A stretch of DNA of 64,000 nt from NCBI GenBank assembly GCA_030699905.1, contig JAUYKQ010000027.1:1293-65292 (forward strand). The letters run 5' to 3'. Within the stretch, counting starts at the first letter, position 1, and the number at the start of each line of letters is the position of its first letter. Of the stretch, positions 2,928 to 60,170 are shown piece after piece. A program made the translations under genes and the position numbers. Under the pieces are notes generated by a model that saw nothing but the letters and a program-made list of their open reading frames with translations, ran no database searches and had not been told where the DNA came from. The stretch is from a bacterium. GTDB lineage: Bacteria; Patescibacteriota; Minisyncoccia; Phycocordibacterales; GCA-002787175.

Positions 2928-3196
2928 ACCTGTTTTGGAAAAAACAGGTGTGGGGGGTAAACCCTTTTTTATTATTCATATAAAAATTCAGCACCTATGT
3001 CTGCCTCTATGATTTGACCATTATCATAATCTGACCATACCCTATGAGAAAGATAATCGTTTATGAAAAAGACCACTAAAATCAAAAGAGTGAGGCCGAG
3101 AAAGATATCCGACGCGTTGTAGTAAATGACAATCTTGGCATCTTTCCTGCTGTCATGCATATGTCTTTTGTGGATGAATTTAAACATGTTTATATT

Positions 3197-3358
3197 CTTT
3201 GAATTACGAAACTCCAAATCCGCGTCTTTCTTTTCAATTTCGGCTACGGCTTTGCAAAAATTATTCAACAGATACTCTGTATATGCCTCATAATTTTTGC
3301 TTCGCCTCGCCCGAAATTGAAAAGAAATCCATCGGAAGCGAGTTTCGTAACTCAAAGT
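3197..3358. mobile_element. MITE-like element, family C copy 1. About 160 bp, ends CTTTGAATTACGAAACTCC ... GGAAGCGAGTTTCGTAACTCAAAGT.
   Basis: Near-identical second copy at 31531-31692. It is the source of the spurious ORFs 2972..3385 and 31513..31773 (both contain ...SYETRFRWISFQFRARRSKNYEAYTEYLLNNFCKAVAEIEKKDA...). Confidence 0.8.
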
Positions 3359-3402
3359 TATTATACGATAGTTTGTAATGGACACAACCGCTCCAATACT
3401 CG

Positions 3403-17208: not shown

Positions 17209-17384
17209 CTCCCTTTTGTAAAGGGGGAGAGAATTTTCAATTTTGCAATTTTCAATTTTCAATCAAATCCCGAAATTTTCAATGCATCAAATTCGTAGTC
17301 AATGTTCGTCCCGCTTTGCTTGTTTCTTTGTTTGAAAATTGATTCATTGAAAATTGATTGAAAATTGCAAAATTGAAAATTCTC
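17209..17384. mobile_element. MITE-like element, family D copy 2, with full ~30 bp terminal inverted repeats
   Basis: Near-identical to 196-352. The ORF-track entry 17279..17488 is an artefact. Confidence 0.75.
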
Positions 17385-17497
17385 TTATCAATGTCCTCGT
17401 GTGACGCAGGGGCGGTGTATTCATACGATATAATCCCATAAATTTGGTAAAATTTCAATTTTTGAAAAAGCTCCGATATAGCGTACAATGTGCCTAC

Positions 17498-19856: not shown

Positions 19857-19863
19857 GACAAAA

Positions 19864-20006
19864 CTGTGAATTACGAAATGTCTTTCTCGGCGAGGTCTTC
19901 GCGGCGCACGAAGATTTTTTGCTAAAAATCTTCTCTCTCCAGCGCCGGCCGCGCTTCCGAAGGCGCCACTCAAACCTCGCCTCAACACCATTTCGTAATC
20001 CACAGT
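19864..20006. mobile_element. MITE-like element, family A copy 2
   Basis: CTGTGAATTACGAAATG ... CATTTCGTAATCCACAGT. Nearly identical to copy 1. Spurious ORF 19761..20003. Confidence 0.8.
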
Positions 20007-20088
20007 ATTTTTCGCAATTTAGGATAATTTTGAAAACAAAAAACGCTCTCCGGAAGGAGAGCGTTTTTACGTTCGAAAAGAATGCTCA

Positions 20089-28640: not shown

Positions 28641-28783
28641 CTTTGAATTACGAAATACAGCAGGCGTCCCCCACGAGGAAAGTCACAAAAAAGTGACCGC
28701 TCCAAGGGCGCTTGCCCGGTCCTAGTCACTTTTTTGTGACTTTCCTCGTGGGGGGGGAAGGCGGGTGTTTCTTAATCCACAGT
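28641..28783. mobile_element. MITE-like element, family B copy 1. About 140 bp, with a poly-C/poly-G core hairpin (CCCCCACGAGG...AAAAGTGACCGCTCCAAGGGCGCTTG...GTCACTTTTTTGTGACTTTCCTCGTGGGGGG).
   Basis: Four copies (28641, 30887, 33773, 49775). The left end is CTTTGAATTACGAAA; the right end is degenerate in this copy. Confidence 0.8.
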
Positions 28784-30776: not shown

Positions 30777-30886
30777 TCATCTCTCCCTAATTCTTAATTC
30801 ATAATTCATAAATCCTAAATCCTATTTCGTGGAGTATCTTTTCCTCCACTATCGTGTTATACTTCTGTGGTAAGATTTATAATAAA

Positions 30887-31026
30887 CTGTGAATTACAAA
30901 ACACCTGCTTCCCCCCCTCGGAAAGCTCCCAAAAAAGTGACCGCTCCAAGGGCGCTTGTCCGGTCCCAGTCACTTTTTTGTGACTTTCCTCGTGGGGGGG
31001 GAGCATGCCGTTTTTTGTAATTCAAG
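30887..31026. mobile_element. MITE-like element, family B copy 2
   Basis: CTGTGAATTACAAAACACCTGCTTCCCCCCC...TTTTTTGTAATTCAAG. It is preceded by short AATTCATA/AATCCTA tandem units at 30795-30826. Confidence 0.8.
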
Positions 31027-31509: not shown

Positions 31510-31530
31510 AAATCAGCGACAGATAGTTCT

Positions 31531-31692
31531 CTTTGAATTACGAAACTCCAATTCCGCGTCTTTCTTTTCAATTTCGGCTACGGCTTTGCAAAAATTATTC
31601 AACAGATACTCTGTATACGCCTCATAATTTTTGCTTCGCCTCGCTCGAAATTGAAAAGAAATCCATCGGAAGCGAGTTTCGTAACTCAAAGT
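31531..31692. mobile_element. MITE-like element, family C copy 2
   Basis: Nearly identical to 3197-3358. Confidence 0.8.
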
Positions 31693-31748
31693 TCTTAGCT
31701 TCGGACAGGCAAAAGACAAATTCGTCTTCTGCTTGACGATATTTTTAA

Positions 31749-33772: not shown

Positions 33773-33919
33773 CTGTGAATTACGAAACACTTGCTTACCC
33801 CCCCACGAGGGAAAGCTCCCAAAAAAGTGACCGCTCCAAGGGCGCTTGCCCAGTCTTAGTCACTTTTTTGTGACTTTCCTCGTGTGGGGGGCCACCTGCC
33901 GTATTTCGTAACTCAAAGT
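33773..33919. mobile_element. MITE-like element, family B copy 3
   Basis: CTGTGAATTACGAAACACTTGCTTACCCCCCCACGAGG...GCCGTATTTCGTAACTCAAAGT. Confidence 0.8.
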
Positions 33920-37828: not shown

Positions 37829-39151
37829 ATGAAATTTTTTTTAAAACAAATCGTAATCACTCTTCTTACTTGGGAAGCTCGCGTTGTACTGAAGAAGTAC
37901 AAGCCGTCCATAATCGCCGTTACCGGTACGGTGGGAAAAACCAGTACCAAGGACATGATATATACGATTTTTTCAAAATATTTATATACCAGAAAAAGTG
38001 AAAAAAGTTTTAACGGCGATATAGGAGTGCCTCTTACCATTCTTGGCCTGCCGAACGGCTGGAACAACCCTTTTGTTTGGCTTCTCAATATACTGAGGGG
38101 CCTCCGTCTCATTTTTCCGGTACGTTTGTCGCTTAAGGCCACAAGGTATCCCCAGTGGCTTATTTTGGAAATAGGCGCTGACAGGCCCGGAGATATCAGA
38201 CGTCTGGCCAAGTGGATAAAGCCGGATGTTACGGTTGTTACAAAGCTAAGCAAAGTGCCTGTGCATATAGAATTTTTCAAGTCGGTGGCGGAAGTAAACA
38301 AAGAGAAGTCCAATATTGTAAAGTCCCTAAAGAACGGCGGTTCTCTGATTTTAAACGGGGACGACGAAGACGTACGTCAGTTTTCGGAAATCAGAAGAGA
38401 AATAAAACCGTTATTTTTTGGATTTGATAATTTTTCCAATATAAAAGCAAGCAACTACGCCATTGAGTATGAAGATAAAAATGGCTTGCGTCTTCCGTGG
38501 GGTATTTCTTTTAAATTAAATTTCAGCAACAATTGCTTGCCGGTAAAATTAAACGGCGTCTTGGGGAAGAGCGTCTGTTTTGCCGCTCTCTCCGGTTTTG
38601 CCACCGCAATAGTCGCCGATATTCCACCTCTCTCTGCCCTTGAAGCGATGGCTGATTATAAGACGCCTCCCGGCAGAATGCGTCTCGTTGAAGGCGTAAA
38701 AGATTCGCTCATTATAGATGACACGTATAATTCTTCGCCCGCGGCTGTAGAGGGAGCTTTGGGGACATTGCGTGACATTGAAGGTTACGGCAAAAAAATC
38801 GCCGTTTTGGGAGATATGTTAGAGCTTGGCAGGCATAGTCCGGAGGCGCATCGAGAGATCGGAAAGTTGGTCGCGTGTTCTGCTCATGTTTTGATAACAG
38901 TTGGTGTCAGGGCTCGAGAGATAGCGCAAGTGGCCATGGAAAACGGAATGTCGGAGAAATCAATTTTCCAATTTGAAGACGCGGACAAAGCCGGCAAACA
39001 TTTGGAGCTACTGTTGCAAAAAGGAGATATTGCTCTTGTGAAAGGTTCACAATCAGTACGGATGGAAAGGACGGTAAAAGAGGTTATGGCAAGGCCGGAA
39101 GACGCGGCGAAAATTCTGTGCAGACAGGAGAGGCAGTGGATGTTGAGATAA
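37829..39151 (+). CDS. murF: UDP-MurNAc-tripeptide--D-Ala-D-Ala ligase
   Basis: Mur ligase P-loop AVTGTVGKTSTKDMI and Mur ligase C-terminal domain. It follows ftsI. Confidence 0.8.
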   Translation: MKFFLKQIVITLLTWEARVVLKKYKPSIIAVTGTVGKTSTKDMIYTIFSKYLYTRKSEKSFNGDIGVPLTILGLPNGWNNPFVWLLNILRGLRLIFPVRLSLKATRYPQWLILEIGADRPGDIRRLAKWIKPDVTVVTKLSKVPVHIEFFKSVAEVNKEKSNIVKSLKNGGSLILNGDDEDVRQFSEIRREIKPLFFGFDNFSNIKASNYAIEYEDKNGLRLPWGISFKLNFSNNCLPVKLNGVLGKSVCFAALSGFATAIVADIPPLSALEAMADYKTPPGRMRLVEGVKDSLIIDDTYNSSPAAVEGALGTLRDIEGYGKKIAVLGDMLELGRHSPEAHREIGKLVACSAHVLITVGVRAREIAQVAMENGMSEKSIFQFEDADKAGKHLELLLQKGDIALVKGSQSVRMERTVKEVMARPEDAAKILCRQERQWMLR

Positions 39152-39317
39152 TAAAGAATTCGGACGTGAATAACTACTCATCGGGATTGAAGCTTACAGC
39201 TTCAGTACAGGTTTCCCATTTGCTCACGATAAGAATCGCGCGCAAATATGGGAGAACCTCTTCAAATCCCGAACGCAAAGCAAGCAGTTGCTTTGCTTGA
39301 GTTCAAAATTAGAATTT

Positions 39318-39392
39318 TGACCTCATCGGGATTTGAACCCGAGTTCCAGCGTTGAGAACGCCGTGTCCTAGACCAGGCTAGACGATGAGGCC
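39318..39392 (-). tRNA. tRNA-Glu (anticodon CTC)
   Basis: The reverse complement GGCCTCATCGTCTAGCCTGGTCTAGGACACGGCGTTCTCAACGCTGGAACTCGGGTTCAAATCCCGATGAGGTC folds as a cloverleaf with anticodon loop TTCTCAA. Confidence 0.85.
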
Positions 39393-39405
39393 GTGTGACA
39401 GAGAA

Positions 39406-39434
39406 ATCATACCATTTCGGACACGATTTTCAAC
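39406..39434 (-). promoter_or_regulatory. sigma70-like promoter for tRNA-Glu (TTGAAA, about 16-17 nt spacer, TATGAT)
   Basis: The minus strand reads ttgaaaatcgtgtccgaaatggtatgat, about 13 nt upstream of the tRNA 5' end. Confidence 0.5.
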
Positions 39435-39439
39435 TTTTT

Positions 39440-39592
39440 AATCAATCCGCAGAATTCCCCGACGGCTTTCCGCGGGGATGAATGCGGAGTGAGTGGGAAG
39501 GGGGTCGGGGAAACGGGAGTTTCCCCGTGGAGGAGAGCAGTGAGTCTGCGAGCGTTGAGAACCGAGAGGTTCTCAAAATAAATTCCGCTCGC
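39440..39592. ncRNA. GC-rich cluster of perfect stem-loops (candidate structured RNA or regulatory element). Strand is unresolved; GNRA loops favour the plus strand.
   Basis: Plus-strand hairpins CGGGGAAAC-GGGA-GTTTCCCCG and GAGAACC-GAGA-GGTTCTC, nested inside GCGAGCG...CGCTCGC. Two copies of a CCCCG(N10)CGGGG hairpin lie about 150 nt apart. No ORF. Confidence 0.4.
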
Positions 39593-40027
39593 CTAATACC
39601 CCGTCCGTTTGCCGCGGGGATATGGACGAGCGGGATTTATTTTATTGGAATGCTTTTTGATAACAACTATTTCAGGCAGGGGACGGGGTCCGCTATTTAT
39701 TAGAGCGGATTTTAATTTCAACTGGTCGTAACCTAATGCCACGACATCCGGCTTGAATTTCTTAATAGCGCTCCAACTGCCTAAACTTGTATCGCCGGAG
39801 ACGATTTCCGCTTCCGGAAACCTTTTTTCAACCGCCAGCATTCTCTCCGGAAGAGGCGAGCGGGGGACTTTGTTTTTCAAAGAAACCACACTGCTGTCTT
39901 GAGCTACACTAACAATCAACTTGCTTCCAAGTTTTTGGGCTTCGCGTAGGAAAAAAACATGGCCTTCATGCAGACCGTCAAACGTGCCGAAAACCAAAAC
40001 CGCTTTTTTTAATTTACCACTTGCCAT
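39593..40027 (-). CDS. Cytidylyltransferase-like nucleotidyltransferase (GTFDxxHxGH family, glycerol-3-P cytidylyltransferase / FAD synthetase-like)
   Basis: VLVFGTFDGLHEGHVFFL motif and about 140 aa size. The C-terminal ~17 residues overlap the GC-rich hairpin region, so their extent is uncertain. Confidence 0.65.
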   Translation of the reverse strand: MASGKLKKAVLVFGTFDGLHEGHVFFLREAQKLGSKLIVSVAQDSSVVSLKNKVPRSPLPERMLAVEKRFPEAEIVSGDTSLGSWSAIKKFKPDVVALGYDQLKLKSALINSGPRPLPEIVVIKKHSNKINPARPYPRGKRTGY

Positions 40028-40578: not shown

Positions 40579-41082
40579 AACTAACACCGTGATGGCGAAT
40601 TGTTGCAGATTATGAAGATAAGAGTTTGAAAAGAAAACGCCCCCCGATTATGCTCTTGTGCATTATGGGGGGCTAAGGGGCCGTTTTAGGGGTCAGTGGA
40701 AATGTGACACAGGACTTCGTCGTTCTCTGTGTCCGCATCAAAGTTCCTTCTCCGGCGTTTCTTCGGCCGAAATCTCCCGAAAGTTACGCCAGAAGTTGAA
40801 GTGGAACTATAATGACTCATCAATGCCTGCGTTTTCTGGCTGGTTGGTAACATGTCCACTCGTAGTCCGGCCGTTCTCACTGCTTTTTCCTTTCGTTGTT
40901 GAGTTTTTACCGAAGTCCCACTTGGAGGGTATTCGGTGCGGTACGTATTTTGATGTCGCTCGGAAATCTCCGTGCAACCTCAAACCGGGAGGGAAAAATT
41001 TCCAAGGCATACTGTAGATAAAATAACATGAACGCATTAAAAAGCAAATATGGACATCACTCTATGTTTTCCTTAAAATATT

Positions 41083-43486: not shown

Positions 43487-43892
43487 CTCAATTTTTCTTT
43501 TGATATATTATTACAGAGGTTCATGAGGATTGTAATCCTCTTGATGAAGCGAGAGTGACAGTGCATCGGCCACCCCTCCCTCTTGTCGGGTGCTTGCGGG
43601 GGGAGGGGCGGTTTTTAAAGACAATTTCTTATTTTCAGCAAATCCTAGGCAGGGGGTTTGCTGTTTGGGGTCCCGAGTCGTAATGGTTTACGGCTCGGGA
43701 TTTTTTTAAACCTCAAACCTCTCGTTTTGGGCGCTTGTTTAATTTCCTGGAGGTGGTACTCTTATAAAAGATAGGGTCTTGCGGTACTGAAAAGCACCCA
43801 AGGAGGCATTCCGAGTCCTGGGAGCCGCAATTCTCTGTTCACTTCTGGGCCCCGTTCGCTTGCGAACGGGGCTCTTTTCTTGCATTTTTTTC

Positions 43893-49774: not shown

Positions 49775-49913
49775 CTGTGAATTACGAAACGCCTGCCCCC
49801 CACGAGGGAAAGCTCCCAAAAAAGTGACCGCTCCAAGGGCGCTTGCCTAGGGCTCAGTCACTTTTTTGTGACTTTCCTCGTGGGGGGGCGACTGCCGTAT
49901 TTTGTAATTCAAG
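49775..49913. mobile_element. MITE-like element, family B copy 4
   Basis: CTGTGAATTACGAAACGCCTGCCCCCCACGAGG...GCCGTATTTTGTAATTCAAG. Confidence 0.8.
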
Positions 49914-51300: not shown

Positions 51301-51370
51301 GTCGGGAGGAACCGGCTATGATTTACGATTTATGATTCAGGATTTAGGAGAAAAGAAAATAACCAGAAGG

Positions 51371-51426
51371 GGGACAGATGGGCACCATCACTCCCGATGT
51401 CGGGAGTGATGGTGCCCATCTGTCCC
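51371..51426. repeat. Perfect 27 bp inverted repeat with a 2 nt spacer (GGGACAGATGGGCACCATCACTCCCGA tg TCGGGAGTGATGGTGCCCATCTGTCCC)
   Basis: Read directly. No following T-run, so it is unlikely to be a simple terminator. It lies about 60 nt upstream of rplI. Confidence 0.8.
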
Positions 51427-51968: not shown

Positions 51969-52016
51969 AAAAACGGCGGTTATCAAAGGACTAAGTCCTT
52001 TGATAACCGCCGTTTT
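51969..52016. terminator. Bidirectional intrinsic terminator
   Basis: AAAACGGCGGTTATCAAAGGACTAAGTCCTTTGATAACCGCCGTTTTT between convergent genes. Confidence 0.75.
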
Positions 52017-52020
52017 TCTG

Positions 52021-57969: not shown

Positions 57970-58170
57970 TTTGGCAAAGCGTTGATTTTGTTGTTCAATT
58001 TAAATGAGTTGTCTCGCCTAAAAAACGGCTCTGCAGAGCCGTTTTTTAGGCGATTGATAATCCTGCTTTTCTCTTTTTAGTATTGACAATGAAAACGTTT
58101 TATGCTAATATATAAAGACAGTCAGACGAAAGTCTGATTTTAAATTTTATCTCTGGACCTTTACGGAAAG

Positions 58171-58665: not shown

Positions 58666-58672
58666 TAGCAGA

Positions 58673-58705
58673 AAAAACACTCGGATTTTGTCCGAGTGTT
58701 TTTTC
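58673..58705. terminator. Bidirectional intrinsic terminator
   Basis: AAAAAACACTCGGATTTTGTCCGAGTGTTTTTT. Confidence 0.75.
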
Positions 58706-58971
58706 TTATCCGCTCAAATCCCCTGCTATCGCTGTAAAGAGAGGGGAGTGGCAGTAGTCCCCCTTAAGAGGAGCGCCTTGCCCCGTTAGAAATTAGAAAG
58801 AGGTTTCTAACGGGGCGGCCTCTCCGGCCGACCCTCCAGAGGGGAGAGAGATAGGGGGTGTGGATAACTTTTTTTGAAGTTCTTTTAAAGATGCTAAAAT
58901 TAATAATCATGGTTCGCATAATTTAAGTTAATCGTACCATGCCGTTAAAATTAAGCCCATAATTTATTGTC

Positions 58972-59922: not shown

Positions 59923-59936
59923 AAGAGGTATTAAAC

Positions 59937-60078
59937 CTTGAATTACGAAATGTCTTTTTCGGCGAGGTCTTCGTACGCCACGAAGATTTTTTACTAAAAA
60001 TCTCCTCTCTCCGGCGCCAGCCGCGCCTCCGAAGGCGCCTCTCAAACCTCGCCTCAACACCATTTCGTAATTCACGGT
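59937..60078. mobile_element. MITE-like element, family A copy 3
   Basis: TTGAATTACGAAATG...CATTTCGTAATTCACGGT. Spurious ORF 59884..60075. Confidence 0.8.
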
Positions 60079-60170
60079 ATTAAACGCAAGTTCGCGCTTA
60101 CCGAAATAACGGGGATGAGTGAAGGTTTACGGGCTTTGCGAAGCCCGTCGTGACCAAAAACTCCCCTCTC

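Follow-up and report, generated by a model that had tools for sequence, protein, structure and literature searches.

Short, non-coding, strongly folding repeats are found in many bacteria, among them the Correia elements of Neisseria, the Rickettsia palindromic elements (RPE), the BOX and RUP elements of pneumococci and the ERIC elements of enterobacteria. These repeats can lie between genes or inside them, they can add codons to an open reading frame (ORF) or bring in terminators or promoters, and they are marked by terminal inverted repeats and/or defined duplications (TA in the case of Correia). BOX elements consist of conserved end modules and a variable middle. The genomes of bacteria of the candidate phyla radiation (CPR, or Patescibacteria) are tiny, and the mobile DNA in them is poorly catalogued. 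Here, we describe a hairpin-rich repeat in a 64,000-nt stretch of the patescibacterial contig JAUYKQ010000027.1 (assembly GCA_030699905.1), hereafter the window, in which positions ~39441–39644 probably hold one copy of a non-coding mobile element, rich in hairpins and dispersed among Patescibacteria. Its family shares the conserved ends and variable middle of BOX elements, but we know of no sequence in common with it in the Correia, RPE, BOX, RUP or ERIC repeats, and it differs from all of them in spanning several phylum-level CPR lineages at 75–88% identity. No description of the element was found in Rfam or in the literature searched, and this repeat is apparently undescribed, although its kind is known (bacterial repeats resembling MITEs [miniature inverted-repeat transposable elements], palindrome-associated transposable elements [PATEs] or REPs). 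Its main interest lies in its spread across deep CPR lineages and in the remodelling of gene ends.

Two of the closest described systems are as follows. In the IS200/IS605 family, the transposase TnpA recognises sub-terminal imperfect palindromes and inserts the element 3' to a specific tetra- or pentanucleotide (PMC3597680). A single-copy HUH enzyme is believed to move REP elements (PMC8266576). REP, BIME and REPIN repeats (RAYT-associated) resemble the window element in being imperfect palindromes selected for pairing and in their place after genes, often where two genes converge; termination and the stabilisation of mRNA are among the roles they can have. However, REPs are 20–40 nt long, number tens to hundreds of copies and carry a conserved tetranucleotide as their 5' head, whereas the element is 150–240 nt long, has two different end hairpins and is present in 1 to ~12 copies per genome seen. 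Membership in the REP/REPIN class was therefore rejected on size (138–242 nt) and on copy number (one in the 64-kb window, at most ~12 in the richest genome seen).

In the window, a chain of five hairpins (H1, H2, H2b, H3 and H4 on the + strand) lies between a tRNA-Glu(CTC) gene and the stop codon of a cytidylyltransferase-like gene. The unit is ~199–204 nt long, and its 3' end can be placed anywhere from 39639 to 39644; its boundaries were drawn from the similarity end-point and by analogy with an insertion on another contig (L005, junctions TTA|ATG...GTTTTA|TTT). A preliminary description of this stretch had reported a cluster of stem-loops here, and these hairpins are real, but the structured unit runs on to ~39644, past the range first given. 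It is bounded by two related 'bookend' hairpins that point the same way, the 5' H1 and the 3' H4, each with a conserved apex above a conserved internal loop and a lower stem that is free to covary; the interior differs between sub-families and, in that of the window, comprises H2, a variable mini-hairpin and H3. H1 (39442–39492; inverted repeat I2, found in minimum-free-energy [MFE] folds) has the lower stem (U)CCGCA/UGCGG(A), the symmetric internal loop GAAU/UGAA and the apex CCCCG-A-CGG-CUUU-CCG-CGGGG. H4 (39575–39643; inverted repeat I1, with 29-nt arms that are 79% complementary) is present in the MFE folds of both strands and has an A-run/T-run base, the lower stem CCGCTCGCC/GG-A-CGAGCGG with a bulged A, the internal loop UAAUA/AUAU and the apex CCCCG-U-CCG-UUUG-CCG-CGGGG, which is the same apex module as in H1. 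With our covariance model of the bookends (R1), H4 scores 67.3 bits (E = 2e-17) and H1 37.5 bits (E = 1.6e-8) on the + strand, a plus polarity given the ~10 bits obtained on the − strand. The two CCCCG...CGGGG copies of the preliminary description thus exist, at 39457–39477 and 39599–39619, but with a spacer of 11 nt rather than 10 and an offset of 142 nt rather than ~150; 0.08 such matches are expected per window, and two were found in 0 of 100 shuffles. A perfect hairpin of the bookend-apex style (CCCCG...CUUG...CGGGG), CCCCGTTCG-CTTG-CGAACGGGG, also occurs at 43850–43871, without flanking modules (R1 14.8 bits, E ~0.1).

Between the bookends, H2 (39506–39527; CGGGGAAAC-GGGA-GTTTCCCCG, also written CGGGGAAAC-GGGA-GUUUCCCCG) is the perfect 9-bp hairpin that had been described, and GAGAACC-GAGA-GGTTCTC is likewise perfect and extends to the 9-bp hairpin TTGAGAACC-GAGA-GGTTCTCAA (H3, 39555–39576; also written UUGAGAACC-GAGA-GGUUCUCAA), both being seen in sequence and in the fold; the small variable hairpin H2b (GCAG UGAGU CUGC, 39537–39549) appears in the MFE fold. 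The outer helix GCGAGCG/CGCTCGC that was said to enclose H3 as part of a perfect nested helix does not hold: it is non-contiguous, 2 and 11 bases being left unpaired on its two sides, its upstream GCGAGCG is wholly absent in one of the relatives (L022), and CGCTCGC instead finds its partner in GACGAGCGG downstream, forming the lower stem of H4, in both MFE folds and, with covariation, across the family. The folding of the region is far more stable than that of shuffled sequence, with z = −6.6 on the + strand and −8.1 on the − strand. No known RNA family was recognised: Rfam 15 at gathering score reports only tRNAs across the window, and with permissive filters the best match in 39150–39900 has an E-value no better than 0.1, all matches being trivial hairpins. 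Three structural readings were also tried and set aside, namely a kink-turn or box C/D-like motif in H1 (by manual pairing, the GAAU/UGAA loop is symmetric and has no 3-nt bulge), a tetraloop-receptor fold (CCUAAUA/AUAUGG in H4 resembles the 11-nt GAAA receptor, but the loops of H2 and H3 are not conserved GNRA) and a small ORF in the element (H2–H3 spacers of 9, 12, 13, 14, 20 and 22 nt are incompatible with a reading frame).

That the unit belongs to a repeat family follows from its copies elsewhere. A search of one-genome-per-species bacterial and archaeal contigs with the degenerate apex pattern CCCCGNCNGNTTNCCGCGGGGAT gave 34 matches, where ~4 would be expected by chance in the whole collection (our own arithmetic); ~30 of these are in Patescibacteria (Taylor-, Vogel-, Kaiser-, Lloyd- and Saccharibacteria, Paceibacterota, Parcubacteria), and those in Streptomyces, Treponema and similar genomes look like chance background. 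Full-length relatives with 75–88% identity and the same hairpin order are present on six contigs (L002, L004 [= L038], L005, L022 [= L040/L041], L036 and L039 [= L033]), and L037 carries the 5' part of the element only. Copies in this range of identity come from Vogel-, Taylor- and Saccharibacteria, Paceibacterota and Parcubacteria, and so close a match between Saccharibacteria and several lineages of Parcubacteria is a mark of DNA exchanged between very deep branches. The flanking genes differ for every copy (one lies between rpsF and ssb), and no tRNA was found near the other copies, on which ground we reject a tRNA-linked integration. Copies are preferentially placed after the 3' ends of genes, often between convergent genes and never between divergent ones. 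No match to the element was found in phage and plasmid collections.

A sister family that shares only the H1/H4 ends, with a different middle and large indels, is present in at least 10 copies in Taylorbacteria CH-Oct18-75, and further variants were seen in Vogelbacteria and others. H1 precedes H4 on the same strand in every one of the 21 two-hairpin copies, with 138–242 nt from the start of H1 to the end of H4. Three 'solo' hairpins (in L009, in L016 and just upstream of the L035 copy) join the 5' flank of H1 to the 3' flank of H4, and such hybrids are the expected remnant, because a deletion between two identical apices would leave them. In Parcubacteria GW2011_GWC2_48_17 (L004, 5080–5360, − strand), one and the same 16-nt sequence, TCCTTTATCTTTAATC, borders the element at either side, and ~25 nt are similar on both sides if the tail of the element is counted, which suggests a tandem or partial re-insertion and not a simple short duplication.

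Insertion into a gene can be read directly from the Saccharibacteria contig L005, where the element sits in the same orientation inside a reverse-transcriptase (RT) gene of the type found in diversity-generating retroelements (DGRs). The interrupted ORF reads ...LHPCKVTIRKL, then the element, then (F)QGTDFLGYVSLTHYRVLRTRTKRRMLKRL...; when 204 nt are taken out, the frame is restored to ...LHPCKVTIRKL-F-QGTDFLGY..., and the restored protein aligns unbroken to the solved Bordetella bRT (8ub7, E = 4e-37) and matches uninterrupted homologues with up to 74% identity, which read ...HPNKVTIRKLRQGTDFLGY... at this place. The junctions are AAAGTTA|ATGC...GTTTTA|TTTCAG, in which the left TTA is host coding sequence (K–L codons) and the element ends in TTTTA. 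This RT gene (1266–2350, − strand, of a Saccharibacteria metagenome-assembled genome) carries two in-frame TAG codons (conserved N-terminal region) besides the 204-nt insertion and is therefore a pseudogene.

The L005 copy also bears on how the element could have arrived. Since the inserted segment begins inside a TTAAT box, this box is a junction and not a promoter, and an RNA intermediate is unlikely; RNA-mediated (SINE-like) spread was rejected because the insert starts within the would-be −10 box, upstream of any start site that this box could specify. A group I or group II intron was likewise rejected, as there is no Rfam intron match and no catalytic core, and most copies are intergenic; in addition, every possible L005 insert starts with U or A and ends with U or A, contrary to the boundary rules of introns, which are exon-U/omega-G in group I and GUGYG...AY in group II. 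A link to DGRs was discarded because the sole RT nearby, in L005, is the gene that the element has broken; no other RT was found in the window or at the other loci, and no TR/VR-type (template and variable repeat) pair near the element. At a further locus (L012), where the element stands at the 5' end of a secreted-protein gene, an in-frame insertion was considered and dropped as ambiguous, given that removal of 98 nt restores no frame on manual translation.

The hairpins are kept by selection for base-pairing. Covariation was assessed first in 14 H4-type hairpins picked by hand and next in 50 distinct bookend hairpins aligned with the model; the latter alignment was fitted to the model and so leans towards structure. 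Paired cells make up 89% in the bookend hairpins, compared with 36–52% in slid controls, compensatory changes affect 9 of 18 pairs in the smaller set and 13 of 18 in the larger, and the observed covariation score was reached by none of 500 shuffles. The lower stem has been replaced wholesale (CGCUCG/CGAGCG, CUUCG/CGAAG, CGCCCG/CGGGCG, UUUUGUG/CACAAAA), and the inner apex stem varies as CGG/CCG, CCG/CGG or CAG/CUG, with the CUUG loop, the internal loops and the bulged A fixed across bookends, for which the consensus apex is CCCCG-N-CGG-CUUG-CCG-CGGGG. In H1, the lower stem CCGCA/UGCGG has changed to GCGCA/UGCGC in a compensatory manner in L002 and L005. The stem of H2 is kept in all copies (with G·U pairs in L002 and L037), its loop being GGGA, GGA, UCUA or AGGGU, and the loop of H3 can be GAGA, GAGU, GCCG or GGAGGA. 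Other small hairpins occupy the H2b site elsewhere, for instance GGGC GAA GCCC in L022 and CCCGCC AACU GGCGGG in L037, with length differences that are not multiples of three. Compensatory changes in stems, together with the same DNA in unrelated gene contexts, bear out the suggestion that this is a non-coding element selected for pairing and not for protein. A covariation analysis based on synteny was abandoned, because the closest homologues of the flanking gene are only 53–61% identical, lie in other contexts and lack the element.

Such structure could also belong to a + strand small structured RNA gene that has spread horizontally, that acts in trans or as an antisense RNA on the 3' end of the nucleotidyltransferase gene, and whose bookends bind an RNA-binding protein. 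We consider this unlikely, although several features speak for it: the interior is highly conserved across phylum-level lineages, the stems covary, the loops on the + strand are of stable types (GNRA, CUUG), a terminator-shaped hairpin closes the unit, and the + strand folds better than the − strand by 1–9 kcal/mol in 17 of 18 copies, which may only reflect the G-richness of the + strand. A 12-nt direct repeat, AGCGTTGAGAAC, is moreover shared between the 5' flank and arm of H3 (39551–39562) and the tRNA-Glu gene (39348–39359), and in the latter it is the antisense of the anticodon's loop and 3' stem, so that the RNA would be complementary to the anticodon arm; this match may be a coincidence (~0.0015 by our own arithmetic), microhomology or a hint of an RNA-level interaction, and a 10-mer of it, CGTTGAGAAC, is present in seven of eight element copies with no tRNA nearby. 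On the other hand, no + strand sigma-70-like promoter was found upstream of 39441, and the conserved TTTAAT box there spans the junction defined by L005 and is hence partly host sequence, not a component of a unit delimited by transcription. The GNRA loops, from which a + strand RNA had originally been proposed, differ between copies, there is no Rfam match, and the patchy distribution, the solo remnants and the gene-breaking insertion do not suit a gene of this kind. Mismatches in stems amount to 22 G·U and 21 A·C, with no strand preference; the wobble-pair test for the transcribed strand is thus uninformative, and because the two are equally frequent, the data are silent on a folding of + strand RNA only. 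If folding is required of both strands, as for a bidirectional terminator, G·U and A·C mismatches should be equally rare, and hairpins that form on both strands or in DNA would fit as well.

For a mobile element, the bookends H1 and H4 would be recognition sites for an enzyme acting in trans, and the element would move as DNA into T-rich TTTA(A/T) sites, typically T-tracts downstream of genes, always in one orientation relative to TTTA(A/T). As a mechanism, our first guess would be transposition of the IS200/IS605 ('PATE') type, which is single-stranded and guided by hairpins. Each of the 21 two-hairpin copies has TTTA(A/T) or a close variant 0–12 nt upstream of H1 and on the strand of the element itself (in the window, the left junction is CTTTTTA, 39434–39440), and the motif is present at both junctions of all of them, as the element itself ends in TTTA(T). 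The left motif is often preceded by a T-run of the host, which in many Taylorbacteria copies is the tail of the upstream gene's own terminator hairpin. No copy (0 of 21) has the reverse orientation relative to the T-rich flank.

TTTA(A/T) junctions in one orientation suggest, by analogy, a strand-specific insertion of the IS200/IS605 type. As in PATEs, similar imperfect palindromes lie just inside both ends on the same strand, terminal inverted repeats are absent, a fixed T-rich tetra- or pentanucleotide stands immediately 5' of the left end, the hairpin stem has an unpaired base, and a single orientation is kept relative to the target motif. We favour this type because of these one-strand sub-terminal palindromes, the lack of terminal inverted repeats, the T-rich 5' motif and the single orientation, and, judged by its sequence, the element has the structural features of a PATE. 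It differs from PATEs in that no TnpA or TnpB was found near any copy, TTTA(A/T) also ends the element, the 3' hairpin is much longer and terminator-shaped, and the interior carries extra conserved hairpins. Because the element also ends in TTTA, a short (2–5 bp) target duplication is possible. Should a partner enzyme come to light, it could be studied with the conserved bookend hairpin as a substrate already to hand.

Several observations weigh against a mobile element of this kind. Neither a transposase nor any other partner protein was found, no autonomous element with H1/H4 ends was seen, and a tblastn search of the window and 287 kb of flanks with two IS200-type TnpA queries, a weak test, gave a best E-value no better than 0.7. 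An R1 scan of the 64-kb window returned a single copy, and for selfish DNA the conservation of the interior in the window's sub-family is unusually high, so this interior may have a function of its own. L005 is the only clear comparison of a filled with an intact site, and the TTA repeat at its junctions fits either target duplication or site-specific insertion. In the window itself, the displaced coding 3' end was not found beyond the element on its far side, and this copy is therefore not a clean recent insertion.

A classical cut-and-paste MITE, moved by a DDE transposase (IS630/Tc1-like or IS5-like) with a TA or TTA target-site duplication, would account for the TA, TTA or longer T-rich repeats at both junctions, and both the size and the hairpin content of the element are typical of bacterial MITEs; the genome also has other MITE-like repeats with terminal inverted repeats (D2, D7 and D10). 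However, the ends are similar hairpins in direct and not inverted arrangement, and the only inverted-repeat similarity, AATCC(C)GC, is explained by hairpin arms. The T-rich motif is, furthermore, on the same strand in all 21 copies, whereas a symmetric transposase would use both orientations at a non-palindromic site. On the direct-repeat ends and the absence of reversed copies, we excluded the element from the classical DDE-type MITEs, and this explanation is accordingly given little chance.

Similarly small is the chance that the element is something more than selfish DNA: a horizontally mobile, CPR-specific module encoding a structured RNA, whose identical-apex hairpins recruit a dedicated protein and whose conserved interior, with 10–12 nt complementary to the anticodon arm of tRNA-Glu(CUC), has its effect on RNA (tRNA-Glu, for instance, or the transcripts at insertion sites), or else a product of hairpin-guided transposition by an enzyme outside the known transposase families.

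The element has consequences for the gene next to it. The cytidylyltransferase-like (FAD-synthetase-like) gene (39593–40027, − strand; Pfam PF01467, E = 7e-10) has its 3' end in the element, and its last 14–16 codons, (K)(I)NPARPYPRGKRTGY, with the TAG stop (39593–39643, − strand), are the reverse complement of H4. The protein has 80 homologues, the closest non-identical ones being 53–61% identical, and these end ...HE-P.RLHSRFLRKK, with nothing in common with the tail of the window ORF. The last ~16 residues are thus unconserved as protein, as was anticipated for a non-coding element, and the DNA that encodes them is non-coding in other genomes. Since the tail is the reverse complement of H4 and the homologues end otherwise, a C-terminal segment that is highly conserved among them (...RLHSRFLR...) has been replaced; the element would have supplanted it and supplied the 14–16 codons and the stop. 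A nucleotidyltransferase with such an element-encoded tail may, from its sequence, be impaired. No element was found downstream of the nearest nucleotidyltransferase homologues, which sit in other contexts. Repeats such as this one remodel gene ends, the nucleotidyltransferase C-terminus here and a reverse-transcriptase gene elsewhere. For annotation, the element accounts for the odd tail of the ORF and cautions against naming the region a locus-specific regulatory RNA. Only one other assembly, a 1.76-kb Logan contig (L001, SRR13727534), encodes the exact nucleotidyltransferase protein, and it stops ~44 nt past the stop codon, inside the element at about window position 39550; a hairpin or repeat that breaks assembly would explain this end.

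On its other side, the element adjoins the tRNA-Glu(CTC) gene (39318–39392, − strand; ARAGORN, and 53.3 bits with the Rfam tRNA model). The − strand promoter that had been assigned to this gene was confirmed as a promoter-like site, TTGAAA-16-TGnTATGAT, read from 39433 to 39406 with 10 of 12 matches and a TG extension; a distance of 7 nt separates its −35 box from the element's 5' junction. H4 is shaped like a bidirectional intrinsic terminator: it is GC-rich, it folds on both strands, it is flanked by AAAATAAAT on one side and ATTTATTTT on the other so that a T-run follows the hairpin on each strand, it lies at a gene 3' end, and it overlaps the stop codon (39593–39595). It is the sole terminator-shaped structure at the 3' end of the nucleotidyltransferase gene, and it probably ends that transcript just before the tRNA-Glu promoter. 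H4 with its A- and T-runs would thus most likely serve as the intrinsic terminator of the gene and as a barrier to transcription from either direction. Ordinary terminators differ from it in that they are not conserved in sequence across phyla, have no second related hairpin 140 nt upstream and do not insert into genes. Neither the cis-antisense regulator proposed earlier nor a dedicated tRNA-Glu/nucleotidyltransferase element is supported. A locus-specific cis element that arose on the spot, as an attenuator, an insulator or a terminator of several hairpins separating the nucleotidyltransferase gene from the promoter of tRNA-Glu, could appeal to the position between two − strand transcription units, to the terminator shape of H4 and to the ability of CGCTCGC to pair with GCGAGCG upstream or GACGAGCGG downstream, but it is largely refuted, and most improbable, as the ~200-nt unit recurs in at least seven other genomes beside unrelated genes, and in L005 inside an RT gene, the homologues of the gene lack the element downstream and the upstream alternative helix is missing in L022.

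Several other repeat families are present in the window, and the genome therefore tolerates such elements; for a small genome, this segment has an unusual wealth of repeats. One palindromic repeat of 91 nt, which has perfect arms of 30 nt and a C-run/G-run at its ends, occurs four times (28667–28757, 30911–31001, 33801–33891 and 49798–49888), and its conserved flanks resemble terminal inverted repeats (GAATTACAAAAC...GTTTTTTGTAATTC), as in a separate MITE-like family. Three copies of a 160-nt repeat (1677–1836, 19861–20020 and 59933–60092), two of a 168-nt repeat that is itself an inverted repeat (3196–3363 and 31530–31697), and paired 83-nt and 68-nt repeats (219–354 and 17247–17386) were also found. 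Tandem arrays of the heptamer CCTAAAT occupy two places, and a third has a degenerate copy in inverted orientation (344–432, 30786–30839 and 51317–51359). The ~490 nt from the methylpurine-DNA-glycosylase gene to the YqeY-like gene (40590–41080) have no credible ORF and no Pfam or Rfam match, and they include a hairpin, CCCCCCGATTATGC...GCATTATGGGGGG, at 40641–40672. Perfect palindromes with 100% complementary arms of 27, 24, 20 and 16 nt lie at 51371–51426, 51969–52017, 58014–58053 and 58670–58706, respectively; some of them have A-run/T-run ends like those of bidirectional terminators, and the one at 58014–58053 is loop-free.

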